Virus record (IMG/VR): IMGVR_UViG_3300028805_000019 | Coordinates: 1 to 37,489 of that record | Length of the DNA stretch: 37,489 nucleotides | Source of the DNA: a virus | Direction: 5' to 3' (one strand) | Shown here: positions 1,391-15,408 of the stretch, piece by piece | How positions within the stretch are numbered: the first letter of the stretch is position 1 | How the letters are laid out: the number at the start of each line of letters is the position of its first letter | Notes under the pieces: model-generated | Database searches by the model: none | Told to the model about the DNA's origin: nothing | Seen by the model: only the letters and a program-made list of their open reading frames with translations | Position numbers and translations under genes: made by a program

Positions 1391-2302
1391 TTAAGCCGTA
1401 CCGAGGACGATCTGTGCCGGGAAGTAGTAGGCCACGCCGGAAGTCCATTTGACCTGCCACTTGAACAGGCGGTCATCCTGCGACCACCACAGGTCGACAT
1501 CCACCTCGTCACCATCCACATCGGTGAGGTAGGTGAGGTTGTCGGCGAACGTGCCCACGATAGCGTTGCTGCCAGCGAGGCCCGGGGTCTTGACCACCAC
1601 GACATCGCTGCCGGGGAACACGAAGGTCTCCGGGGCGGCATCGTTCGGGCCAGCATAGTGGTAGTAGTTCTTCGCCACCATTGCCTGGAGGAAGGCGCGG
1701 TAGTTGGCCGGGGAGATGAAAATCATACCGCCGCGGTCAAGGGTCTCATCCGGCATCGCCATATAGACATTCTGCACGGACTCATAGATGTCATTGCCAG
1801 CGGTGGCGGTGAGGACATCGGTGTCGCCCGCGAACTGCGCAAGGAAGCCGTTGAGCATTGCCATATTGCCCTGTCCGCTGGTGGTGTTGCCCTGCCAGAT
1901 GAGTTTTTCGATGACCTTGTTGACCTCGCGGCCCATCACGTCCATCAGATAGGCCTCATACGGGAGGTCGTTCTCGGTGGCGTTGATGCGGACAAGGTAC
2001 TCGGCGTACTTGCCCAGCAGGGTCTCGGGGCAGAGCTGGCCGTCGTGTTTGAGGGCCACGACATTGACAGTCTTCTGCGTGAGGGTAGCCTCGTCAAGCG
2101 GGTTGAAACCGCAGCCGGAGCCGGACTGAAGGACGAGGTTGAAGTCAAGGAAGGGAAGATGCTCGCCGGACTTGATGCCCGTGCGCAGACCGATGCGGCG
2201 GCGGGTGTCGGAACCTACCAGCGCAAAGTTCTTGATGATGAGGTCACGGCTCTCCTGCACATAGGCGGGGAGGGAGGTGACGAGGAAATTGGTAACTGCC
2301 AT
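1391..2302 (-). CDS. Major capsid protein (HK97-fold type), 303 aa
   Basis: Lies directly after the protease/scaffold gene. Size and motifs (KLIWQGNTTSG, FISPANY) are typical of HK97-like capsid proteins. Confidence 0.8.
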   Translation of the reverse strand: MAVTNFLVTSLPAYVQESRDLIIKNFALVGSDTRRRIGLRTGIKSGEHLPFLDFNLVLQSGSGCGFNPLDEATLTQKTVNVVALKHDGQLCPETLLGKYAEYLVRINATENDLPYEAYLMDVMGREVNKVIEKLIWQGNTTSGQGNMAMLNGFLAQFAGDTDVLTATAGNDIYESVQNVYMAMPDETLDRGGMIFISPANYRAFLQAMVAKNYYHYAGPNDAAPETFVFPGSDVVVVKTPGLAGSNAIVGTFADNLTYLTDVDGDEVDVDLWWSQDDRLFKWQVKWTSGVAYYFPAQIVLGTA

Positions 2303-2329
2303 ATCTTTTCAGTTTTTGAGTGATTTCTG

Positions 2330-2342
2330 CCGTGAAATAGAC
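2330..2342 (-). promoter_or_regulatory. Conserved 13-mer GTCTATTTCACGG upstream of the capsid gene
   Basis: Lies 28 nt upstream of the ATG at 2302. Confidence 0.5.
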
Positions 2343-2366
2343 TTGATTAAGCGAGTGTTAAAAAAC

Positions 2367-3581
2367 CTACTTGCTCATCAGTTCGGCCACGCGGTCAAGG
2401 CCCTTTGCCCCGGTCTTGCGGAAGGACTGCTCCTTCACTTCTTCGTGGGCGGGCTTGGCGGCGGGCTGGGCTTTCAGTTCGGTCACCTGTGCCCGGAGGG
2501 ATTCGACCTCGGCGGAAAGGGTCTCGGCTTCGGCCTGTGCCTGCTGGGTGGCTTCGACCCCGGCGTTGCGGACTTCTTCGAGGGCCGCTTCCAGTTCCGC
2601 AATCTTCGCAAGGGCTTCTTCGTACAGGGCCTTGTAATCGGGTTCGGCTTCCGGCTCTGCTTCAACATCGGCGGCTTCCTCGCCCTCGGGTGCAACCTCG
2701 GCTTCCGGGTCACGAATCTCCGCGACCTTGCCGTCCACGACCACGATGGTCTTGCCGTCCTCGGTCTTGTAGTCCCCGTCGGCGGCAGCTTCGCGGGTGT
2801 CATCCTCGGTGACGACCTCCACGGAATCACCTTCCTTCAAGTCCTCCTCGCCGGGCCATTCGATGATGCCCTTGTCGGTGGTTACACGGCCAAACTTCTG
2901 CTCGGCCTTCTGCTCCGCTTCCAGCCGGGTGCGGAGAAGTTCTAAAATGCGTTCAATCTTTGCCATAATCGTATTCTTGGTGTCTTTGTTTGCTGCTGAA
3001 AATTCCCCGGCCAGCCCGTCCACGATTTCGTCTATGTCCTGCTGGTTGGGTTCGGTGGCGAATCCGAAAACACCTTCAAGGGAGAAGCCTTGATAAGTGC
3101 CGTCCTTGATTGCGGCCCACACATCGTCATTGGTAACGTGGAACTCCGCGAACAGGGAGCCGTCCGCGATGTCGTCGAAGCCCTCGGGATTGATACCCTT
3201 GCTTGTGTCCTTGATAAAGAACTGCACCATCTCCACGCCGTCCACCTCGTTGCCGTCGTGCATCGTGTCCACGTTGTTCTGCCGGGATTCGGCAAGGTAC
3301 TTCTCTGCCATTTCCCGGATGGTGTCAGCCCGGTAGATGATATAATACTCGCCGCCCTTGTTATCCACTCGATAGATAGGGAAATCGGCCCGCATCACCA
3401 CGCCCCGGACAAGTCTCTGTTCCTCGTCCTGCACGGCGTACATTTGTACCTTCTTGAAGGTCTGCCAGCCGGAGAGAACCGCCGGGGCATCCACAAGGGA
3501 AATCCGAATCATCCCGCACTCCTCGTCGGAGAGCAGGGCTTCGTATACGGGGATTCCGTCAATAGTAGAGGTCTTTGCCAT
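2367..3581 (-). CDS. Prohead protease (XkdF-like) fused to an acidic coiled-coil scaffold-like C-terminus, 404 aa
   Basis: IRISLVDAPAV...MHDGNEVDG...GFSLEG resembles XkdF-type proteases. The C-terminal half is E/A-rich coiled coil. The ATG is at 3581; the track start at 3584 is TTG. Confidence 0.65.
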   Translation of the reverse strand: MAKTSTIDGIPVYEALLSDEECGMIRISLVDAPAVLSGWQTFKKVQMYAVQDEEQRLVRGVVMRADFPIYRVDNKGGEYYIIYRADTIREMAEKYLAESRQNNVDTMHDGNEVDGVEMVQFFIKDTSKGINPEGFDDIADGSLFAEFHVTNDDVWAAIKDGTYQGFSLEGVFGFATEPNQQDIDEIVDGLAGEFSAANKDTKNTIMAKIERILELLRTRLEAEQKAEQKFGRVTTDKGIIEWPGEEDLKEGDSVEVVTEDDTREAAADGDYKTEDGKTIVVVDGKVAEIRDPEAEVAPEGEEAADVEAEPEAEPDYKALYEEALAKIAELEAALEEVRNAGVEATQQAQAEAETLSAEVESLRAQVTELKAQPAAKPAHEEVKEQSFRKTGAKGLDRVAELMSK

Positions 3582-3592
3582 CAATTCACTTT

Positions 3593-3605
3593 CCGTGAAA
3601 TAGAC
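3593..3605 (-). promoter_or_regulatory. Conserved 13-mer GTCTATTTCACGG upstream of the protease/scaffold gene
   Basis: Exact copy, 12 nt upstream of the ATG at 3581. Confidence 0.5.
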
Positions 3606-3641
3606 AAAGACCCCTTTTTGTTAAAACGCCCCGTTTTTGCC

Positions 3642-3660
3642 GTCTAAAACTCCGTTTCCC
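3642..3660 (-). promoter_or_regulatory. Conserved motif GGGAAACGGAGTTTTAGAC (family AAATCGAGTTTTAGA)
   Basis: One of four copies; the others are at 9216-9234, 13066-13084 and 27217-27235. This copy overlaps the last codons and stop of the tape-measure gene. Confidence 0.45.
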
Positions 3661-5578
3661 GCACCTTAACGCGGTGGGCGGTATTGGCTATTTCAAGGTC
3701 GCTATAAACGAGGAATACGCGCTGATTTTGGTACAATCGTTCTTCCTCCCTTTGCCCGGTCACGTTTCTTACTTGGGCCACATAGGGGGAGAAGGCCGGG
3801 GCGGGCACGGCTGCGCTGGAGGAATCATTCCCTACCTTGACTGAGTTCATTTGCTTCACCTGTGCGTACCCGGCTGCGAGGACGGCGGCTGCGTTCATCG
3901 GGGCGAGGACTGCCTTAACCGAGAGGGGCAGTTCGGCCGCAGACCAGGTGGAGGTGAAGGCGGATACCGCTCCATTGATGGTAGAAAGGATGGCGCTCGC
4001 AATCTTGAACCCCTTTGCCTTCTTCGCGGCGGCTTCGTCCGCATCGGCATCGGCTTCGTAGATGTCGGCAATCGCCCCGGACAAATCCGATAGGGTGGAG
4101 GTGTAGCCCATAAACGAGGCGAGTCGTTCCTTTTGGATGCGCTGCCGCTCCGCTTCCGCTTTCCGCTCAATTTCAATCGCGGCCCATTGCGCTTCCTCAT
4201 ACTCACCAAGCAGGGCGGTCACATCTTCCGTGATGCTCTGGAACTCGGTTTCGATGTCTTTGGTGATTTCGTCCGTCCAGAGTTTGTAGTTGGATTCCCT
4301 GCTCTTGCGCTCCTTCTCGAAATCCGCCCAAGTTTTAAGGGTTTTCTTTGCTGCCTTCTCGGAGGTCTCTGACGCCGTGTTGACTTGTTTTGATAATTCG
4401 CTGACCGCGCTGCTCTCCTGCTGCGTGATGGCCCGCTGCCGTTGCGCCCGCTCCCTGTCAAGGTTGTTGAGTTTGACCTTTGCCGCCACTAACTTTTCAT
4501 TCGTGGCCGCATCGTTCTGCGTGAGGGCCGCCCGTTGCTCCTGCAAATCCAAATCCCGCTGGGCGAGTTCGTATTGCTTGTTGAACAATTCTTCCGACAG
4601 GCGTTGCGCTTCCTCGGCAGCCTTCTTTCGCTCTGCCGCCGTTTTGTTGGTTCTGTCTGCCGCATCCGCTTGCAGTTTAGCAATATCGGCCTGTACCCGC
4701 GATTCATAGACCTGCATTTCGCGCTGGTCAAGAATAAGCTGCTGCTCGGCGGCGGTAAGGGCTTGCATCGCATCGGCGGCATCCCCTTTCACAAGGCCCA
4801 GCCACCGGGCCGCCTTGCCCGCGCCCTCCACAATCTTGACCAGCCACCCCGCCATCGTTTGCAGGGCGTTAGTGGTTGCATTAAGGATGGGCTGAAACAC
4901 GGCGAGGGCCTTCTGCATCGCCATCGTGTTCTGTTCGGAGGATTTCAGCCCCTCCATTACCTTATTCAGCACATTAGCCAGCAGACCGAGGATTGCGATG
5001 GCGGGCGTTGCGGACAGGGCCTTTAGGCCCCCGGTCACCGCAGTAAGCGGGGAAATGATACCAGCCGCACTTCCTGCCGTTGCCTTAAATGCCCCGGACA
5101 AACCCTCAATCGCGCTCTTGTAGTTACCCACGTTGCGCTGGTAGTTGCCCTGCATTTCGTCAAGGGCTTTCAGCTTGGAGTTGACCGCATCAATCTGCCG
5201 AGCCTTGTTCTTAAAAGCCTCCGTCCCTTCGACGGTGCTGGTGTCAATCGCCCGAAGTTCCTCCTTATAGATAGCCATCGTGCGGACAAGGCCGTTATAC
5301 GATTGGTCTTGTCCCTTCGCGGCAGCGGCTACCTGCTCCATCGAAGTGGCCGTCCCGTGCATCGCATTACGCAGGGCGGCCTGGTTTTCCTCCAGCTCTT
5401 TGAGGGCTTGCTTATACTCATCCGTGCCGATTTTTAGGCCCTCAATCTTGACCTTATTCCCGTCAATGACTTCGGTATAACCCTCAATCTGCTTCTTTAG
5501 TTCCCGGATATTGTCTTTGAGGTCGGAAATGGAATCCGCGCCCTCGACGGCGAACCTCAAAATCTGTACATCTTCCAT
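3644..5578 (-). CDS. Tape measure-like protein, 644 aa
   Basis: Long coiled-coil sequence with two hydrophobic G/A-rich segments (AGIISPLTAVTGGLKALSATPAIAILGLLANVL and ASAILSTINGAVSAF...), as in tape measure proteins. Confidence 0.65.
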   Translation of the reverse strand: MEDVQILRFAVEGADSISDLKDNIRELKKQIEGYTEVIDGNKVKIEGLKIGTDEYKQALKELEENQAALRNAMHGTATSMEQVAAAAKGQDQSYNGLVRTMAIYKEELRAIDTSTVEGTEAFKNKARQIDAVNSKLKALDEMQGNYQRNVGNYKSAIEGLSGAFKATAGSAAGIISPLTAVTGGLKALSATPAIAILGLLANVLNKVMEGLKSSEQNTMAMQKALAVFQPILNATTNALQTMAGWLVKIVEGAGKAARWLGLVKGDAADAMQALTAAEQQLILDQREMQVYESRVQADIAKLQADAADRTNKTAAERKKAAEEAQRLSEELFNKQYELAQRDLDLQEQRAALTQNDAATNEKLVAAKVKLNNLDRERAQRQRAITQQESSAVSELSKQVNTASETSEKAAKKTLKTWADFEKERKSRESNYKLWTDEITKDIETEFQSITEDVTALLGEYEEAQWAAIEIERKAEAERQRIQKERLASFMGYTSTLSDLSGAIADIYEADADADEAAAKKAKGFKIASAILSTINGAVSAFTSTWSAAELPLSVKAVLAPMNAAAVLAAGYAQVKQMNSVKVGNDSSSAAVPAPAFSPYVAQVRNVTGQREEERLYQNQRVFLVYSDLEIANTAHRVKVRETEF

Positions 5579-10062: not shown

Positions 10063-10529
10063 GCCGACAGGTTCAGCGCATCTTGTACGGACAAGTCCTC
10101 CCGGATGGCGTTCTGTACTTCGACTACATCATAGCCGTCATTGTACTTCATCCCCTCCGGGACAAGGAAGCAGGAAAGAATCTCCACAAGTTTCGCATCC
10201 CCTTCCGGGGCGAGAGTCTGGAAGTCAATGTACTGCGCCGTGGTAATCTTCCGCAAGTCCCCGGTCGGGATAAGGGTGAACTTCCCGGCGTGGTACTTCG
10301 ATGCAATCCTCCCTGTCTTGGTCACGGGCGTTTGCAGGTAGTCGGTCTTGGCTGCGAGTTGGGAGTACTCCGCGATTGGGAGGTTCAGCAGTTCTCTTTC
10401 CGACAGGCCCGTGAGGATGGACAGGACGGCCACTTGGCGGTCGATGTCGCTCTCAATCGAATTGGCCTTGATGATGTCCTCGTACTTTCCGAGGGACAGG
10501 TCTTTGTAGTTATCTATGCAAGGTATCAT
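9930..10529 (-). CDS. Chaperone-like protein, zero-frame product (199 aa); candidate tail assembly chaperone G
   Basis: ATG at 10529; the track start at 10550 is TTG. Contains a T9 slippery run at 10054-10062. The zero-frame tail after the run is basic and low-complexity. Confidence 0.55.
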   Translation of the reverse strand: MIPCIDNYKDLSLGKYEDIIKANSIESDIDRQVAVLSILTGLSERELLNLPIAEYSQLAAKTDYLQTPVTKTGRIASKYHAGKFTLIPTGDLRKITTAQYIDFQTLAPEGDAKLVEILSCFLVPEGMKYNDGYDVVEVQNAIREDLSVQDALNLSAFFLNKYAALIRATRRSLERTIKRETNPKRRKRMSALLRKDGDG

Positions 10530-12645
10530 ACGTTCTTTGTCTTGATGCAAAACCGATGGTATAGTTCCCGGTGTTTTTCCCGGCGAACTGCGTGTAGAGG
10601 GCGTACCTCAAAGCATCCGGGCAATTATGGGCCAGCACCCCGGCGGCGAAATATTCGTGACAATCAGCCACGGATAGGTCATAAACCACCCGCTTTTTGT
10701 TTTTGCCACCGATATTTTGCACCGCAACTACGCGAGCAGGTGCAAGTATCGGAGTAATGGTTTGCTCTGAATGTTTTTCCGCAAATAACGCAGGTTCGGG
10801 TCTCATCGTCAAGTTTTGCATCCCTGCGCCATTTTGATTTACAGGCATTGGAACAGAATCTTGGAATCGTTGCGGAGCGGTATTCAAATCGTTTCCCGCA
10901 ACACTCGCACACCATTTCCCGCACCGGGTAATCTTCCCACATTCTTTTTGCGTGTTCCTTGTGCCAATCCCGGCCTGCCTCGCTATGATGCCATTCCTTT
11001 GCGCTTTCGCTCGCAATACGAAGATGTGCCAGCGCCTCCGCAGACCTCGCGCGGCGCGAACTTTCTTCCCGGTGCTGGGCGTGATGTTCTTTTCTCGGCA
11101 AGCATTCCAAGTTTGAAATATCGTTGTTATGCGTGTTGCCATCCTTGTGATGAACATCATAACCCGCTGGGATAGGGCCGTTATAAAATTCCCACACATC
11201 CCGGTGCATCTTTCGTTTTGCGCGGTTAAAATATCGCTCCCCTTTGTAGAGGTAGTAAGTTTTTCCATTAAAGACCTGTTCAGCAATAGCACATCTCCGG
11301 CCTTGATTTCTTTTGCTTGTTTCCATCCTTTGTCAGTTTTGAGTTTGTGTTCGGGTGTTACCCTTATAACTATCTCAAAATTAACAAATTTTATTGATAA
11401 ATGCAATATCTTTTTGCATCCATTATTCCATCTTTTCAAGACCATTTTCGGGCCTTGCGATGTTATCACAAAATCGCCCGCCTTGATTCGCCGGATAGAT
11501 TTCTCGCCCCTATCGGTCAGCACCTTTGTGTCCCCGGTAAAACAATGTGACCATTCGTGTATCGGGTAGTCGGTAAGGTTCCCGTCCTTATCCTTCTCGA
11601 AGCAGTAATTTCGGAGGTCTTTGATGAGGTCAAGGGAATCCTTCGTGACAAATAATTTCCAGCCCTGCATCCATTGGATTTGGAACTTCCGCTTGTCACT
11701 TCTAACGGGGGCGGATTTGTCGCAGGGCCTTATCTTCAACCCTGTGGCATCCCCGATTTCCTTGATGCTCTTGGGGTCTTCGCAATCGGCCCAAATGTTC
11801 ACATACCTCCCCGGCGGGTCAGATACCAACTTGGCCGTGATATGCTCGTTCTTCATCGCCCGCTCGTAGCACTTCTGCTGGACATAGGCAACTTTCCGTC
11901 CAGGGTCGGCCAGCACCTTGACAATCGCCGTAGGGTCTTGAAAACCGAAGTCCATTCCCCATACCTCCGTTAAGTCCTCGTTCTCCGGGAGTTTGTCAAT
12001 GAGTTGGAAGTCGGGGTAGATAAGGCCCTCCAAACTGCCTACCAGCCCCAAACCATACACCCGCCACCAATTCGCGTCCCCTTGGTTGGCTTCGATTTCC
12101 CGCACCTGCTCCGGGGAGAGAAAAGAATTGTCCTTGTAGGTGGAGTGAATCGTAACGCACTCCTTCCGGGATTCTATTTGCTCCTGCACCCATCCTTCGT
12201 GTGTAGGGTTGTAGTCCATCAGTACCAGCCCACGGGTACGGACAAATAACTGCCGGGCGATTTCCCACGGGATATTCTGCACCTCATTGAGGAAAAGCCT
12301 GTCACGGGCCGGGCCGTGCACCTTCGCCGGGGCATCTGCCGAGAAGAACTCAATCCGGCTTCCGTTCCGCAGGGTGTAGATGCTCTCTCCCTTGCTCCAG
12401 CAGTCCTCGTCCCATAAGTCACCCAGCACCTCCCGGAAGTCACGAATCGCGCCACGTTTGAGGTGCGGGAAGGTCTCGGACACTACACTCGTTATCGTGG
12501 GCCGGGTATCGGACAGGGCCAGCTTGAAAATGAACTGCAAGGCAGCGAAGGTCTTGCCGCTTCGCGTACCGCCGCAGGACGAAACAAACCGCTCCGTCCT
12601 GCCGACAGCATCCACCAGCCTGTCATATACCGGGGTCGTGGTCAT
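10510..12645 (-). CDS. terL: Terminase large subunit (PBSX/Terminase_3-like) precursor containing an intein
   Basis: Walker A motif CGGTRSGKTF, then VWGMDFGFQDPTA, then the nuclease motif ...HEWSH/CPDALRYALY split by the intein. The ATG at 12645 overlaps the upstream stop as ATGA. Confidence 0.9.
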   Translation of the reverse strand: MTTTPVYDRLVDAVGRTERFVSSCGGTRSGKTFAALQFIFKLALSDTRPTITSVVSETFPHLKRGAIRDFREVLGDLWDEDCWSKGESIYTLRNGSRIEFFSADAPAKVHGPARDRLFLNEVQNIPWEIARQLFVRTRGLVLMDYNPTHEGWVQEQIESRKECVTIHSTYKDNSFLSPEQVREIEANQGDANWWRVYGLGLVGSLEGLIYPDFQLIDKLPENEDLTEVWGMDFGFQDPTAIVKVLADPGRKVAYVQQKCYERAMKNEHITAKLVSDPPGRYVNIWADCEDPKSIKEIGDATGLKIRPCDKSAPVRSDKRKFQIQWMQGWKLFVTKDSLDLIKDLRNYCFEKDKDGNLTDYPIHEWSHCFTGDTKVLTDRGEKSIRRIKAGDFVITSQGPKMVLKRWNNGCKKILHLSIKFVNFEIVIRVTPEHKLKTDKGWKQAKEIKAGDVLLLNRSLMEKLTTSTKGSDILTAQNERCTGMCGNFITALSQRVMMFITRMATRITTIFQTWNACREKNITPSTGKKVRAARGLRRRWHIFVLRAKAQRNGIIARQAGIGTRNTQKECGKITRCGKWCASVAGNDLNTAPQRFQDSVPMPVNQNGAGMQNLTMRPEPALFAEKHSEQTITPILAPARVVAVQNIGGKNKKRVVYDLSVADCHEYFAAGVLAHNCPDALRYALYTQFAGKNTGNYTIGFASRQRTYDTLHR
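10679..11326 (-). CDS. HNH homing endonuclease (215 aa) nested in the intein in a different frame
   Basis: PAGYDVHHKDGNTHNNDISNLECLPRKEHHAQH plus two CxxCG..F..FCSxxC zinc ribbons. The frame is offset 2 nt from terL. ATG start at 11326. Confidence 0.8.
   Translation of the reverse strand: METSKRNQGRRCAIAEQVFNGKTYYLYKGERYFNRAKRKMHRDVWEFYNGPIPAGYDVHHKDGNTHNNDISNLECLPRKEHHAQHREESSRRARSAEALAHLRIASESAKEWHHSEAGRDWHKEHAKRMWEDYPVREMVCECCGKRFEYRSATIPRFCSNACKSKWRRDAKLDDETRTCVICGKTFRANHYSDTCTCSRSCGAKYRWQKQKAGGL
11376..11383 (-). promoter_or_regulatory. Candidate -7 box TAATTTTG inside the intein, upstream of the HNH ORF
   Basis: Matches TAnnTTTG, with only a weak ATTG at the -33 position. About 50 nt upstream of the ATG at 11326. 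Confidence 0.3.
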
Positions 12646-13040
12646 TCGCCCTTCTTCCACTTGTTGAAGGCTTCCTGCTCCTCCTTCGATACCAGCACCG
12701 GGACTTCCTTCGTGAATCCAATCTCGGACACCTGCTTCGGCTTCCCGAACAAGCGGTCAAGGATGTCGGAGGTGTAGATGCCCGCCGTCTTACCCATCAT
12801 CCCCTTCGCGTACACCTGAATCAAGTAACCGAACTCCGGGAGTTCCTCGGCGGTCTTGTTCAGGTACTCCGCTGCCGTCTTCTGGTCGGGCAGGGTCAGC
12901 GCGTGGTACAGGGCTGCGTACACCTTCTCCCGGGCATCGGGCGGGATGGACTTTAACTTGGGCTTCCTGCCCGCCCCGGCTGGCTGATTTGTGGCCGAAA
13001 AGCGGTTGCCAATCTTGTTCCCTTTTTCAAATCGTCCCAT
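12642..13040 (-). CDS. Probable terminase small subunit (DUF5681-like N-terminus), 132 aa
   Basis: Sits immediately upstream of terL and is coupled to it. The N-terminal MGRFEKGNKIGNRF...GAGRKPK motif is common in small terminase-like proteins. Confidence 0.5.
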   Translation of the reverse strand: MGRFEKGNKIGNRFSATNQPAGAGRKPKLKSIPPDAREKVYAALYHALTLPDQKTAAEYLNKTAEELPEFGYLIQVYAKGMMGKTAGIYTSDILDRLFGKPKQVSEIGFTKEVPVLVSKEEQEAFNKWKKGE

Positions 13041-13084: not shown

Positions 13085-13126
13085 GGGGTTGACGGACCGC
13101 CCCTGCACGTCGTATCATCGTGGGCG

Positions 13127-13270
13127 TTATGCGCCAAATCTAACCCGTATTCCAAAGAAAGGTGTGAAGTAGAAGCGCTCCGAGAAAATAGTATCCAGCA
13201 CGAAGCCGCCCCCGATTATTTGCGCCAGGATTCTATGCTTCCCATTTTCGCCAGCAATGTAGACATTCAT
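13127..13270 (-). CDS. Possible small ORF (47 aa)
   Basis: Hand-found. Its ATG overlaps the ParB-like stop as ATGA. Translation: MNVYIAGENGKHRILAQIIGGGFVLDTIFSERFYFTPFFGIRVRFGA. Could be a gene remnant. Confidence 0.3.
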   Translation of the reverse strand: MNVYIAGENGKHRILAQIIGGGFVLDTIFSERFYFTPFFGIRVRFGA

Positions 13271-13845
13271 ACTACCTTGCACCCGGGCCAATCCTGCAAG
13301 GTTACTTCGATGGCTGCAGAAATATCGCCCAACTTATCCTCATAGGCGGCGGGAATTTCGACCACGACCTTGATGGGCTTGGGCTTCCCCTCTCCGGCCT
13401 CCTCAAATAGGGCATCCAGCGCACCGGGGTCTTCCGGCTGGCCCGTTATCCACTCCGGCACGCCCCATTCGGCAAGATGCCCGTTATCCCATTCGTTGGC
13501 GAGCTGGTCAATATCCCACGCGCCGAAGGAGCCGTTATCAAGAATTGTCCTGCGCTTGATGGTTTCGTAATCTTCATCCGTTTCCGGGGTGTAGATAATT
13601 ACGGGGACTTCCTTCCGCTTTATCTGCTTCGCGGCGGTCAGCCGGAGATTCCCGGCAAAGGCAATCATTTCCGGCGTGAGCAGGATGGGCCTATCTTCAA
13701 GGAAATCCGGGTCGCGTTCCAGCGATGCGGCGGTCTTGTCAATGTCCGCTTTTGTCCATTGTCGCGGGTTACGGGGTAGCCATTCAAGTTGCCCGTCATT
13801 TGGCGTGATGTCTTTTACTTTTGCGGTGGTGCGTGTTTTTTTCAT
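13267..13845 (-). CDS. ParB N-terminal domain-like (nuclease-like) protein, 192 aa
   Basis: LPRNPRQW...SLERDPDFLEDRPILL...FAGNLRLTAAKQI resembles the ParB/Srx fold motifs often found next to phage terminases. Confidence 0.6.
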   Translation of the reverse strand: MKKTRTTAKVKDITPNDGQLEWLPRNPRQWTKADIDKTAASLERDPDFLEDRPILLTPEMIAFAGNLRLTAAKQIKRKEVPVIIYTPETDEDYETIKRRTILDNGSFGAWDIDQLANEWDNGHLAEWGVPEWITGQPEDPGALDALFEEAGEGKPKPIKVVVEIPAAYEDKLGDISAAIEVTLQDWPGCKVV

Positions 13846-14498
13846 TTTGCCATCATATAAGGGGCGTATATCCGGGCCAGCAAGTAGTCATACTTGTCGG
13901 CGAGGTATATCTGCCCGGTTTTGATAATGTATTCCTCAAATGTCGAATCGTGTTTGCGCGAGTTGCAGGATTTACAGGCGAGAACGATGTTGTGATTTGC
14001 GTTTGTCCCGCCCTTTGATACCGGGGTAAGGTGTTCAAGGGTCGCGGCGTTACCCATATATTCGCCGCAGTAAAAGCACTGATTTCGCTGCGCTGCTTTT
14101 AGTAGTTTGATATACTTCCTATCCACCGGGATTCCAGCAGTCTTATCGCGGCGGCGTTGGTTGTGTCCGCGCATCCGTTCAAGATAGGTTTCATCGCCGC
14201 CCTTCCAGTTGTAAAGTGCTGCGCCGTGGCATTTCGGGGATGCTTTGCGGGCCTCGCTCAACTTGCGGCGGTGTTCTTCCGAAAGGGGGACACCACGCAG
14301 GGCCGCAACTTTGCAATCGTGGCTGCAATACTTATCCCGCGTCCAATCGTAAAACTCCCGGCCACAATGGGCGCAAACTTTCATCTTTCGGAAGCTGACC
14401 GCAGCACATTCGCGGGAGCAGAATTTTGGCGTTCTGTTCTTGTCCGCTTTTTTGCTTTGGAACACATTTCCGCAGGTGGCGCAAACAAATTCTCGCAT
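13842..14498 (-). CDS. HNH endonuclease with N-terminal double zinc ribbon and a NUMOD3-like motif, 218 aa
   Basis: CFYCG...LEHLTPVSKGGTNANHNIVLACKSCNSRKH; GVPLSEEHRRKLSEARK; N-terminal CATCG..F..FCSRECx10CAHCG. Confidence 0.8.
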   Translation of the reverse strand: MREFVCATCGNVFQSKKADKNRTPKFCSRECAAVSFRKMKVCAHCGREFYDWTRDKYCSHDCKVAALRGVPLSEEHRRKLSEARKASPKCHGAALYNWKGGDETYLERMRGHNQRRRDKTAGIPVDRKYIKLLKAAQRNQCFYCGEYMGNAATLEHLTPVSKGGTNANHNIVLACKSCNSRKHDSTFEEYIIKTGQIYLADKYDYLLARIYAPYMMAK

Positions 14499-14843: not shown

Positions 14844-15094
14844 ATATCAAGTATCTTTTTCAGTCGTTCCCAAGTCTTTTGAAGGGCGGGGAGGTCTTTG
14901 AGCAAGTCCCGGTAGTGGTGGATGGTGGAGTGGTTCTTCCCCAGCAAGTCCCCGGTCTCCGTTTCGGTCATTCCCATCGTCAGCAGGGCGTTGGCCAATA
15001 AGGCCCGGGCTTCCACGTTCCCCCGCTTGCGCGTGTCTTTGAGCGGGTCGAACCCGGTCAGGTTCTCAACGATAACGGAGAGGTAGTCTACCAT
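14840..15094 (-). CDS. DnaA domain IV-like HTH protein, 84 aa
   Basis: RKRGNVEARALLANALL...TGDLLGKNHSTIHHY resembles the DnaA C-terminal DNA-binding domain. Confidence 0.5.
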   Translation of the reverse strand: MVDYLSVIVENLTGFDPLKDTRKRGNVEARALLANALLTMGMTETETGDLLGKNHSTIHHYRDLLKDLPALQKTWERLKKILDI

Positions 15095-15408
15095 TTGGGT
15101 GTCAGTTTGTCAAAAATCCACAACGAGCCTTCACGAATAAATAGCAGCGCGGCGGCGATTGTTACGGAGAGCAACGAGAGCGCGGCGGATTCAGCAACGG
15201 CGAGCAGCGAGAAATCCACGCAAATAGAGTAGATAAGGCATACCCACCACGTCATACATTGGCCGCAGTCAAATGGCTTCAGCGGCTTTAGTTCCCGGAC
15301 TTTGAGTTTCCGGGCGAGGGCATCCCGCCACGACTGCGTGAAGCCGGACACATCCACGATATAAACGACAATCGCGGCCACGATAGGAAGTTGTGCGTAG
15401 ATGGTCAT
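15088..15408 (-). CDS. Membrane protein, 106 aa
   Basis: Three hydrophobic segments (LPIVAAIVVYIV, WWVCLIYSICVDFSLLAV, LSLLSVTIAAALLF). Confidence 0.55.
   Translation of the reverse strand: MTIYAQLPIVAAIVVYIVDVSGFTQSWRDALARKLKVRELKPLKPFDCGQCMTWWVCLIYSICVDFSLLAVAESAALSLLSVTIAAALLFIREGSLWIFDKLTPKW

Follow-up and report, generated by a model that had tools for sequence, protein, structure and literature searches.

A phage terminase intein with an HNH endonuclease gene overprinted in another reading frame: a probable composite homing element

Introduction

Can a single stretch of phage DNA encode, in overlapping reading frames, both an intein and the homing endonuclease that would spread it? The question is raised by a terminase large-subunit gene (terL) in the IMG/VR record IMGVR_UViG_3300028805_000019, of which positions 1 to 37,489 were analysed; this whole stretch is called the window below. 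An earlier note on the sequence had proposed that terL is interrupted inside its nuclease motif by a Hint intein of 307 codons with no endonuclease in its own frame, and that a complete HNH endonuclease open reading frame (ORF) lies within the intein instead, offset by 2 nucleotides (nt). We consider it likely that a composite homing element, made up of a contiguous intein and a homing nuclease in a separate frame, has inserted here into the part of a phage terL that encodes the nuclease motif. The anatomy of the locus, the conservation of its register, frame-specific purifying selection, stop avoidance, presence/absence polymorphism and the signals of independent initiation were all computed directly.

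The intein and the overprinted reading frame

Pfam searches were run separately on the two frames, as the earlier note had advised. In the terL frame both ends of the precursor matched terminase large-subunit families and the middle matched Hint/intein families alone (Table 1). The Hint matches were PT-HINT (3.6e-11, 43.9 bits, cutoff 27.7) and Intein_splicing (4.6e-10, 39.9 bits, cutoff 35.8), and no nuclease family was matched by the terL-frame translation. The HNH ORF, whose first base is the third codon position of terL, matched HNH_3 (PF13392; 6.9e-18, 64.5 bits, cutoff 24.8). Across this ORF the terL frame contained no stop codon and the third frame contained 12. All that the earlier note had described of the sequence proved correct.

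The terL-frame insert had the features of a class-1 intein, namely Cys1, a block B of the form TxxH, a terminal His-Asn followed by a +1 Cys, a match to Hint profiles and an in-frame position at a conserved site of the host protein for which precise empty alleles exist. The blocks listed in the earlier note (CFTGDTKVLT, TPEH and VVYDLSVADCHEYFAAGVLAHN/C) were all present at the checked coordinates. C1, T63, H66 and N307 were invariant over an alignment of 49 related inteins, and the +1 Cys of the C-extein stands where the intein-less allele has Gly. The insert is thus a class-1 Hint intein, and its splicing is predicted. Its GC content was 0.471 against 0.550 in the exteins, in line with the AT-richness remarked on before. 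In an AlphaFold2 model of the intein frame (alignment A4), residues 1-98 formed a beta-rich lobe with a predicted local distance difference test score (pLDDT) of 85-94, and residues 268-307 were likewise beta-rich (72-93). The intervening residues 99-267 had a pLDDT below 50 and no secondary structure.

In the HNH protein, H59, H60, N68 and H81 were invariant among 30 HNH homologues, as were the eight ribbon cysteines, and D62, N67, N72 and H85 were nearly so; the window has every one of the eight catalytic-motif residues. The product was modelled with a mean pLDDT of 91.1 (AlphaFold2, alignment A1). Its top match in the PDB was I-HmuI (1u3e; E = 0.03, probability 0.90, TM-score 0.22-0.26 in Foldseek), the low TM-score being expected because the protein is extended and modular. 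The ribbons matched YacG zinc fingers in the fold search.

Structured parts of the Hint domain are also encoded by the first 25 or so codons of the HNH ORF and by its last 20 or so, in keeping with the proposed sharing of nucleotides at both ends. At the 5′ end the HNH partner is a poorly conserved N-terminal extension of low pLDDT. At the 3′ end the first strands of the Hint C-lobe coincide with the C-terminal helix and last zinc knuckle of the HNH protein, which in the models is true dual coding of structured segments. The endonuclease ORF thus lies between the splicing lobes, in another frame, with the intein frame unbroken; the overlap has neither recognisable domain nor structure when read in the terL frame and has both in the alternate frame. 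A group I intron with an HNH ORF was rejected, since no Rfam intron match at E <= 1 was obtained in 10300-11900 and the Hint blocks are in frame. It is also contradicted by the terL frame being held open across the family.

Table 1. Features of the terL locus in the window and overprinted HNH ORFs in three isolated phages
Feature	Record	Position	Strand	Basis or remark
terL precursor ORF, 716 amino acids (aa): N-extein, intein and C-extein	window	10510..12660	-	ORF list; Pfam Terminase_3, Terminase_6N, Terminase_3C and Hint families
TerL N-extein, 372 aa, ending ...PIHEWSH	window	11545..12660	-	99% protein identity to intein-less allele L109
Class-1 Hint intein, 307 codons (C1 ... HN), terL residues 373-679	window	10624..11544	-	Pfam; invariant residues; equals the 921 nt absent in L109
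Hint N-lobe, intein residues 1-98	window	11251..11544	-	AlphaFold2, pLDDT 85-94
Block A Cys1	window	11542-11544	-	motif CFTGDTKVLT
Block B TPEH	window	11347-11358	-	motif
Linker (intein residues 99-267), as translated from the overprinted region in the terL frame	window	10744..11250	-	pLDDT below 50, without secondary structure
Hint C-lobe, residues 268-307, blocks F and G, VVYDLSVADCHEYFAAGVLAHN	window	10624..10743	-	pLDDT 72-93
Terminal Asn of the intein (N307)	window	10624-10626	-	motif ...LAHN/C
TerL C-extein (CPDALRY..., 37 aa and stop)	window	10510..10623	-	+1 Cys at 10621-10623
HNH homing-endonuclease ORF, 215 aa and TGA stop, overlapping intein residues 73-289	window	10679..11326	-	ORF list; HNH_3 match
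HNH catalytic motif HH...N...N...H, HHKDGNTHNNDISNLECLPRKEHHAQH	window	11072..11152	-	motif check; residues invariant in homologues
Zinc ribbon 1 of the HNH protein, four-Cys, CECCGKRFEYRSATIPRFCSNAC	window	10841..10909	-	motif; YacG-like fold matches
Zinc ribbon 2 of the HNH protein, four-Cys, CVICGKTFRANHYSDTCTCSRSC; last knuckle overlaps first Hint C-lobe strand	window	10724..10792	-	motif; model
Candidate Bacteroides-type -7 box, TAATTTTG, 57 nt upstream of the HNH ATG	window	11376..11383	-	motif; common to L017
Overprinted HNH ORF, Clostridium phage phiCDHM19	NC_028996 (L011)	2062-2721		unannotated; TerL annotated as 800 aa
Overprinted HNH ORF, Tetrasphaera phage TJE1	NC_019930 (L012)	2378-3025		unannotated; over-long annotated terL
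Overprinted HNH ORF, Acinetobacter phage Highwayman	OZ038341 (L014)	about 2510-3154		unannotated; over-long annotated terL

Survey of related loci

IMG/VR was scanned with an HNH profile built from alignment A1, and the best 80 of at least 220 confirmed relatives were kept. These 80 loci, together with annotated phage records, were classified by home-made hidden Markov models of Hint-N, Hint-C and HNH. In 64 surveyed matches a contiguous Hint intein carried the HNH ORF at the same relative frame (2) as in the window. The intein frame of these was free of stops, and the third frame had 4-32. Overprinting inside a contiguous intein was thus the majority state of the HNH family among the surveyed loci. 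Four further loci had a second register, with the other frame open. About 10 loci were fractured, in that Hint-N and Hint-C were split by many stops or lay in different frames, and 12 had a free-standing HNH with no Hint nearby. The HNH was in frame with the Hint blocks in none of them.

The earlier note had named homologues with compensating indels, which would put the HNH in frame with the Hint blocks, as one finding that would overturn it. None appeared from either side. Among the 120 listed of 183 HNH homologues there was no in-frame HNH; all were 173-292 aa long, and HNH_3 was their sole nuclease or Hint domain, although one of them also matched an unrelated Pfam entry. From the intein side, a protein search with the intein-frame sequence gave 1 match and a 49-sequence profile gave 14 TerL-intein proteins, from which an HNH domain was absent. 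The word-indexed protein search is insensitive to the fast-evolving intein frame, and the 14 matches were enough for an alignment. Loci found with the intein as query had the same layout too.

The layout recurred in MT838676.1 (L001), an AT-rich human-gut phage contig, and in three isolated phages, Clostridium phage phiCDHM19, Tetrasphaera phage TJE1 and Acinetobacter phage Highwayman (Table 1). Free-standing relatives of the HNH were found directly downstream of an intact, intein-less terL in Pseudomonas phage PAE1 and between terL and portal, on the other strand, in Salmonella phage Shemara. In Lactobacillus phage CL2 (L013, NC_028835, 506-2730) the annotated terminase large subunit stops after Hint-N and is followed, without a change of frame, by the annotated HNH endonuclease; Hint-C with the C-extein (about 2616-2730) is in another frame, unannotated and without an obvious ATG. 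This is likely to be a split-intein ("fractured gene") state, the other reading of the sequence being a sequencing frameshift. The other fractured relatives were metagenomic, among them L027/L028, L036, L048/L054, L077 and L092.

Loss of the nuclease was seen in two forms. In L004, L019, L024, L071 and L081 the embedded HNH had 1-5 internal stops and the intein frame was open; such copies resemble nucleases in decay, which a late stage of the homing cycle would be expected to produce. In the mini-intein of L009 (about 2800-3075) an in-frame deletion had left short stubs of both ends of the HNH ORF, and the HNH region was wholly absent from the mini-inteins P0132 and P0121, which are the closest Hint relatives of the window intein. 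The four-state series from free-standing nuclease to mini-intein fits a free-standing homing endonuclease gene (HEG) that targets terL and invaded an intein at its own target site, after which the two would have become a single unit.

Two further arrangements were observed. In the second-register loci (L070, L085, L090 and L096) a shorter, one-ribbon HNH lay at offset +1 to the intein frame (about 2676-3560 in L070 and L085), and there was no intein-frame stop despite 46-51 at-risk dipeptides per ORF. This register is a much harder constraint than that of the window. In L006 and L007 (about 2242-4008) two tandem inteins were found in one TerL-like protein, and in both the same alternate frame held an ORF of the HNH family or what remained of one.

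Selection on the two reading frames

An open frame of this length had been held to be very unlikely by chance. The naive argument, (61/64)^215 or about 1e-5, is misleading, because few dipeptides are at risk once the HNH protein is taken as given. A stop in the terL frame requires an HNH codon that ends in TA followed by A or G, or one that ends in TG followed by A, and only 9 of the 215 dipeptides in the window HNH are able to give one. Given the HNH protein, the probability of no stop in the window was 0.19 when synonymous codons were permuted, 0.09 when codons were sampled according to extein usage and 0.014 when the order of the codons was shuffled. The argument was dropped and replaced by family-wide tests, and significance comes from that comparison instead.

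Free or split HNH homologues averaged about 8 stops (range 3-12) in the frame that has none in embedded copies. Over 48 embedded loci, the per-locus probability of no stop, given the protein and codon usage of each, had a median of 0.018, and the joint probability was 1e-93. Codon choices are effectively independent among these loci because synonymous sites are saturated at 36% mean protein identity. At-risk dipeptides were fewer in embedded than in free or split copies (7.1 vs 8.6 per 100 codons; Mann-Whitney p = 7e-5). In the other frame there were about 34 per 100 in both classes. The dominance of the window register is explained by its being intrinsically cheap to keep stop-free, and the nuclease seems to show some adaptation to embedding at the amino-acid level.

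Differences between pairs of loci, scored separately for codon positions 1, 2 and 3, set the overlap apart from its flanks. In the overlap they were 0.49, 0.46 and 0.65 in the HNH frame and 0.46, 0.65 and 0.49 in the intein frame, where the second position was thus the most variable, a non-coding-like pattern. The flanks had the normal intein-frame pattern, with 0.51, 0.45 and 0.71 in Hint-N and 0.27, 0.24 and 0.62 in Hint-C. Family-wide, identity in the overlap was 36% in the HNH frame against 20% in the other frame. For distant pairs the intein-frame identity was 20.3%, against 19.7% from stop-free synonymous resampling of the HNH frame. The suggestion that the terL-frame translation of the overlap looks off-frame agrees with these values and with its low pLDDT, and the peptide is probably essentially a passenger. 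The comparison of codon positions that the earlier note had called for, made over the whole family, supports purifying selection on the HNH frame in the overlap and on the intein frame in the flanks. Its view that both frames are maintained was upheld by the common register of the 64 matches, the joint probability and the frame-specific periodicity. The terL frame is actively kept open in the lineage of the window.

Insertion site and empty alleles

An allele without the insert was found in the IMG/VR contig IMGVR_UViG_3300021399_000307 (L109; 36,355 bp), which had 95-97% DNA identity to the window. The window breaks from this contig between 10622 and 10623 and between 11545 and 11546, and has a net 921 nt (307 codons) extra. 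The L109 terL reads ...CACGAATGGTCACAC/GGCCCGGATGCTTTGAGG... across the site (slashes mark the junction), that is ...TCA CAC/GGC CCG... (His-Gly), and the window has CAT-intein-TGC (His...Cys). The N-exteins of the two differed at 2 of 371 residues, and 33 of the 38 nucleotide differences were at codon position 3; the intein-bearing terL, an essential gene, is therefore under purifying selection.

TerL relatives at 50-100% identity (L098, L100-L108 and L110-L113) were intein-less, and TerL of Bacteroides phage BU1-1 (44% identical) is uninterrupted at WNH/ALDALRY. The TerL of L099 (67% identical) had an intein and an HNH at the same site, its HNH being protein P0004. In nearly all relatives the site was in the TerL nuclease motif. 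Across the family no more than a few residues separated the insertion from the last acidic motif of the nuclease domain (...H/C.DA.RY, ...HDDx/CDA... or ...DA/C...), and the C-exteins were short. A search of genome contigs with the N-extein gave no match, so no prophage copy was found. As to direction, recent gain of the intein and its precise loss from the L109 lineage, where recombination with an empty allele could have removed it, are equally possible.

Expression of the nuclease

In the window a TGA in the HNH frame preceded the ATG by 2 codons; over 54 loci the median distance of the upstream stop was 4 codons. The start codon was ATG in 48 of 55 loci, and its position was conserved, 72-95 residues after the start of the intein. 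In every case the HNH ORF ended 10-25 codons before the intein did (18 in the window). Shine-Dalgarno (SD)-like motifs were present 5-17 nt upstream in 20 of the 54 loci against a background of 9.4% (p = 4e-8; four-fold). They included AAAGGAGG and GAGGAGG, as well as AAAGGAG ahead of a GTG start in phiCDHM19. The window and its closest clade had an A-rich leader in place of an SD motif, as is expected for Bacteroidota-type initiation. Independent initiation of the HNH is well supported by these sequence signals.

A box from which the HNH might have its own transcript had also been proposed. The box is present (Table 1), and several related loci have one at -46 or -33 from the HNH ATG; its conservation is only partial. 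The pattern TAnnTTTG occurs 8 times per strand in the window. An internal promoter for the HNH is plausible.

Other differences between the window and L109

The window has a second, free-standing HNH gene (13842-14498, minus strand), which encodes 218 aa and matched PF01844/HNH_5. Its product has two N-terminal CxxCG..F..FCSxxC ribbons that resemble the C-terminal ones of the intein-borne HNH. The gene is absent in L109, where its neighbours abut and the adjacent 192-aa gene (window 13267-13845) has a diverged N-terminus. The second HNH may belong to the packaging type, or the gene may be a further mobile nuclease gene. Two more segments did not align and differed in length (window 13087-13260 and 14844-15118 against L109 2202-2574 and 833-1303); they look like cassette-like replacements.

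Discussion

We suggest the following mechanism, in which splicing, the activity and target of the nuclease, and homing are all deduced from the sequences. The terL frame would be read through the insert, giving two Hint lobes joined by an unstructured linker of ~170 residues, and the intein would splice itself out after translation to leave an active TerL. The linker DNA would also be the body of an independently initiated gene, offset by 2 nt, whose product would be an I-HmuI-like HNH endonuclease with two C-terminal YacG-like zinc ribbons. This nuclease presumably cuts or nicks an intein-less terL at or near ...CAC/GGC... in co-infection, and repair would copy the whole intein and HNH unit into the intein-less allele; the presence/absence polymorphism and the sporadic distribution are indirect evidence for this. 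Selection would be divided, the flanks being held as Hint and the middle as HNH, and the terL frame in the middle would merely stay stop-free, which is cheap in this register.

Several results weigh against this proposal. Considered by itself, the open terL frame of the window is statistically unremarkable (P about 0.1-0.2). The structural likeness of the HNH model to I-HmuI is weak. The candidate promoter box is absent in L001 and L002, which have TAACTTTA instead. Beyond two junction bases there was no co-conversion tract around the insertion in the comparison with L109, so that recent homing from a diverged donor is not demonstrated. Identity between the window and L099 was 38% for the intein, 61% for the HNH and 67% for the exteins; since neither intein nor HNH is closer than the exteins, the comparison gives no direct indication that the element passed horizontally between these two phages in recent times.

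The chief alternative left is that the HNH of the window copy is no longer active. On that account the intein splices and the HNH ORF is a dead passenger, so that a mini-intein with a long junk loop is inherited vertically. Relatives with HNH-frame stops and the three mini-inteins from which the HNH was deleted make this conceivable, and the absent co-conversion tract and the intein divergence from L099 are in its favour. We think it unlikely nonetheless, because the window ORF is intact with every catalytic residue and zinc ligand present, the overlap retains the periodicity and the higher identity of the HNH frame, start codons and SD motifs are conserved, and presence/absence polymorphism separates genomes that are 95-97% identical. 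The nuclease might instead serve the phage, for example as a packaging-associated HNH, and its place in terL would then be a compact-genome arrangement. Packaging-assisting HNH proteins do adjoin terminase genes, according to the abstract of PMC3592412, and the HNH family here is always associated with terL. A phage 95-97% identical to the window nevertheless lacks an intein-borne HNH entirely, its occurrence is sporadic among close TerL relatives, and decayed and deleted copies are common, which makes a service to the phage quite improbable. The window also has the separate free-standing HNH, though that gene is likewise absent in L109.

The remaining rivals concern how the two frames are read. 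A split terL, with halves made separately and trans-spliced around an HNH gene, is the very layout of CL2 and the other fractured relatives. In the window it is very improbable, as the terL frame is stop-free over 716 codons, no internal restart is needed and the frame is actively kept open. Programmed ribosomal frameshifting would give a fusion of N-extein, Hint-N and HNH. The same-strand overlap makes this formally possible, and phages use ribosomal frameshifting elsewhere. We find it scarcely credible here, since the TGA so close to the start leaves almost no room for it, the ATG and the enriched SD-like motifs indicate another start, and free-standing homologues begin at the same point. 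An assembly or sequencing artefact, in which two compensating frameshift errors hide an in-frame HNH intein, was considered too, as one metagenome-like sequence cannot by itself rule out indels and in-frame HNH inteins exist (Dalgaard et al. 1997, through a citing paper). It has next to no chance of being correct, given that the same register was found in 64 independently assembled matches and three isolate genomes, that the two HNH-frame stops bound the ORF in the window as in all relatives, and that neither the HNH side nor the intein side yielded an in-frame homologue. We thus retain the composite homing element as the best explanation.

The earlier note knew of no intein with an overprinted nuclease; such inteins have in fact been described, in out-of-frame and antisense forms. 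Gosselin et al. (bioRxiv 10.1101/2025.01.02.630785) report actinophage inteins with an out-of-frame EndoVII-like homing endonuclease (HEN) and with antisense LAGLIDADG and VSR-like HENs. Their EndoVII-like type resembles the window in that the HEN ORF is on the same strand, in the endonuclease-insertion region and in "frame 3 relative to the intein", and the in-frame region has no recognisable structure. A free-standing HEN that invaded an intein is the origin proposed there also, and many of their non-canonical inteins, this type included, are in terL. The nuclease here is HNH_3 with two YacG-like ribbons rather than EndoVII-like, and HNH domains in that survey are in-frame alone. The hosts here are broad (gut Bacteroides-phage relatives and Clostridioides, Acinetobacter and Tetrasphaera phages) in contrast to the actinophages, and the HNH_3 family has two overprinting registers. 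Identity with the actinophage HEN was rejected, as it is of a different family and no PhagesDB-type actinophage was among the tblastn matches of two HNH-family queries. Homology to the described out-of-frame HENs, EndoVII-like or LAGLIDADG, did not hold for this HNH_3 nuclease; a distant His-Me-finger relationship to the EndoVII-like HEN may exist.

Phillips, DeSimone & Gogarten (bioRxiv 10.64898/2026.09.14.751524) describe a cyanobacterial dnaX intein with an out-of-frame LAGLIDADG homing endonuclease, first noted, as cited there, by Gorbalenya 1998. As in the window, the intein is contiguous with the endonuclease in an overlapping frame, no in-frame relatives are known, the endonuclease frame of the overlap is under purifying and the extein frame under relaxed selection, and mini-intein and empty alleles coexist. 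That element, however, is in a cellular host gene, has a LAGLIDADG nuclease and is called "a rarity", whereas overprinting is the dominant state of a large phage family here. The fractured genes of Dassa et al. 2009 (PMC2677866) are split inteins with a free-standing HEN between the halves. They have in common with our locus a free-standing endonuclease gene inside an intein, mainly in phages, and a route by which nucleases enter inteins, and relatives of the window HNH are in that very state. The nuclease is Vsr-like in half of their loci. A host gene split by a stop and restart was found in CL2, L027, L036, L048, L077 and L092 and not in the window, which has no stop; its host frame is unbroken, and cis-splicing of one polypeptide would be expected.

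Arsenault et al. 2025 (PMC11855218) describe a "hidden" out-of-frame HNH of the ShiLan type, inserted in the gene of a phage DNA methylase. It is also an HNH ORF overprinted on an insert that is stop-free in the host frame, its distribution suggests homing, and the question of how the HNH is translated is common to both. The insert there has no splicing domain and stays in the protein, whereas canonical Hint blocks flank the overprint here. A Hint domain and an HNH-superfamily nuclease likewise form one mobile unit in those canonical inteins whose HNH domain is in frame (Dalgaard et al. 1997, as cited by others). The nuclease there is a domain of the intein polypeptide, and here it is a separate protein in another frame. 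The idea that collaborative homing had been compressed into one locus fits the free-standing relatives beside intein-less terL (PAE1) or in a broken intein (CL2). Collaborative homing, reportedly described by Bonocora & Shub in 2009 and Zeng et al. in 2009, is said to pair a free-standing HEG with an endonuclease-less intervening sequence, for group I introns, at separate loci. In both cases a nuclease gene cooperates with a splicing element that protects the target, and free-standing relatives of our HNH adjoin terL in PAE1 and Shemara. The difference is that the partners here are fused in one DNA segment with overlapping coding.

A literature search, which was not exhaustive, found no paper linking inteins to phiCDHM19, phiCD119 or TJE1, and none on an out-of-frame HNH_3 in an intein. 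The architecture is already known; the HNH_3 family, its abundance, the breadth of hosts, the two registers and the complete evolutionary series appear new. A wider proposal is offered tentatively, and we regard it as possible rather than probable. The locus may be one member of an old family, large but so far undescribed, in which intein-HNH elements are obligately overprinted and specialised on the terL nuclease motif, with a nuclease adapted at the amino-acid level (at-risk dipeptides depleted), a second and much harder register also solved, and all stages kept (free-standing, fractured, overprint and mini-intein). The two genes might even be functionally coupled, if ribosomes on the terL frame occlude the HNH start and so throttle a toxic nuclease, or if the disordered 170-residue linker tunes splicing.

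Gene callers that bar same-strand nested genes systematically miss overprinted HNH ORFs. The window and L109 form a ready experimental pair, which differ by the 921-nt intein in terL and by three other segments including the second HNH gene. The locus would be a natural case of dual coding, in which two unrelated folds share about 650 nt and the split of constraint can be read from sequence comparison. All intermediates in the origin of nuclease-bearing inteins are present within one nuclease family and one host gene, a series that is relevant to the model in which inteins arose "splicing first, nuclease later".

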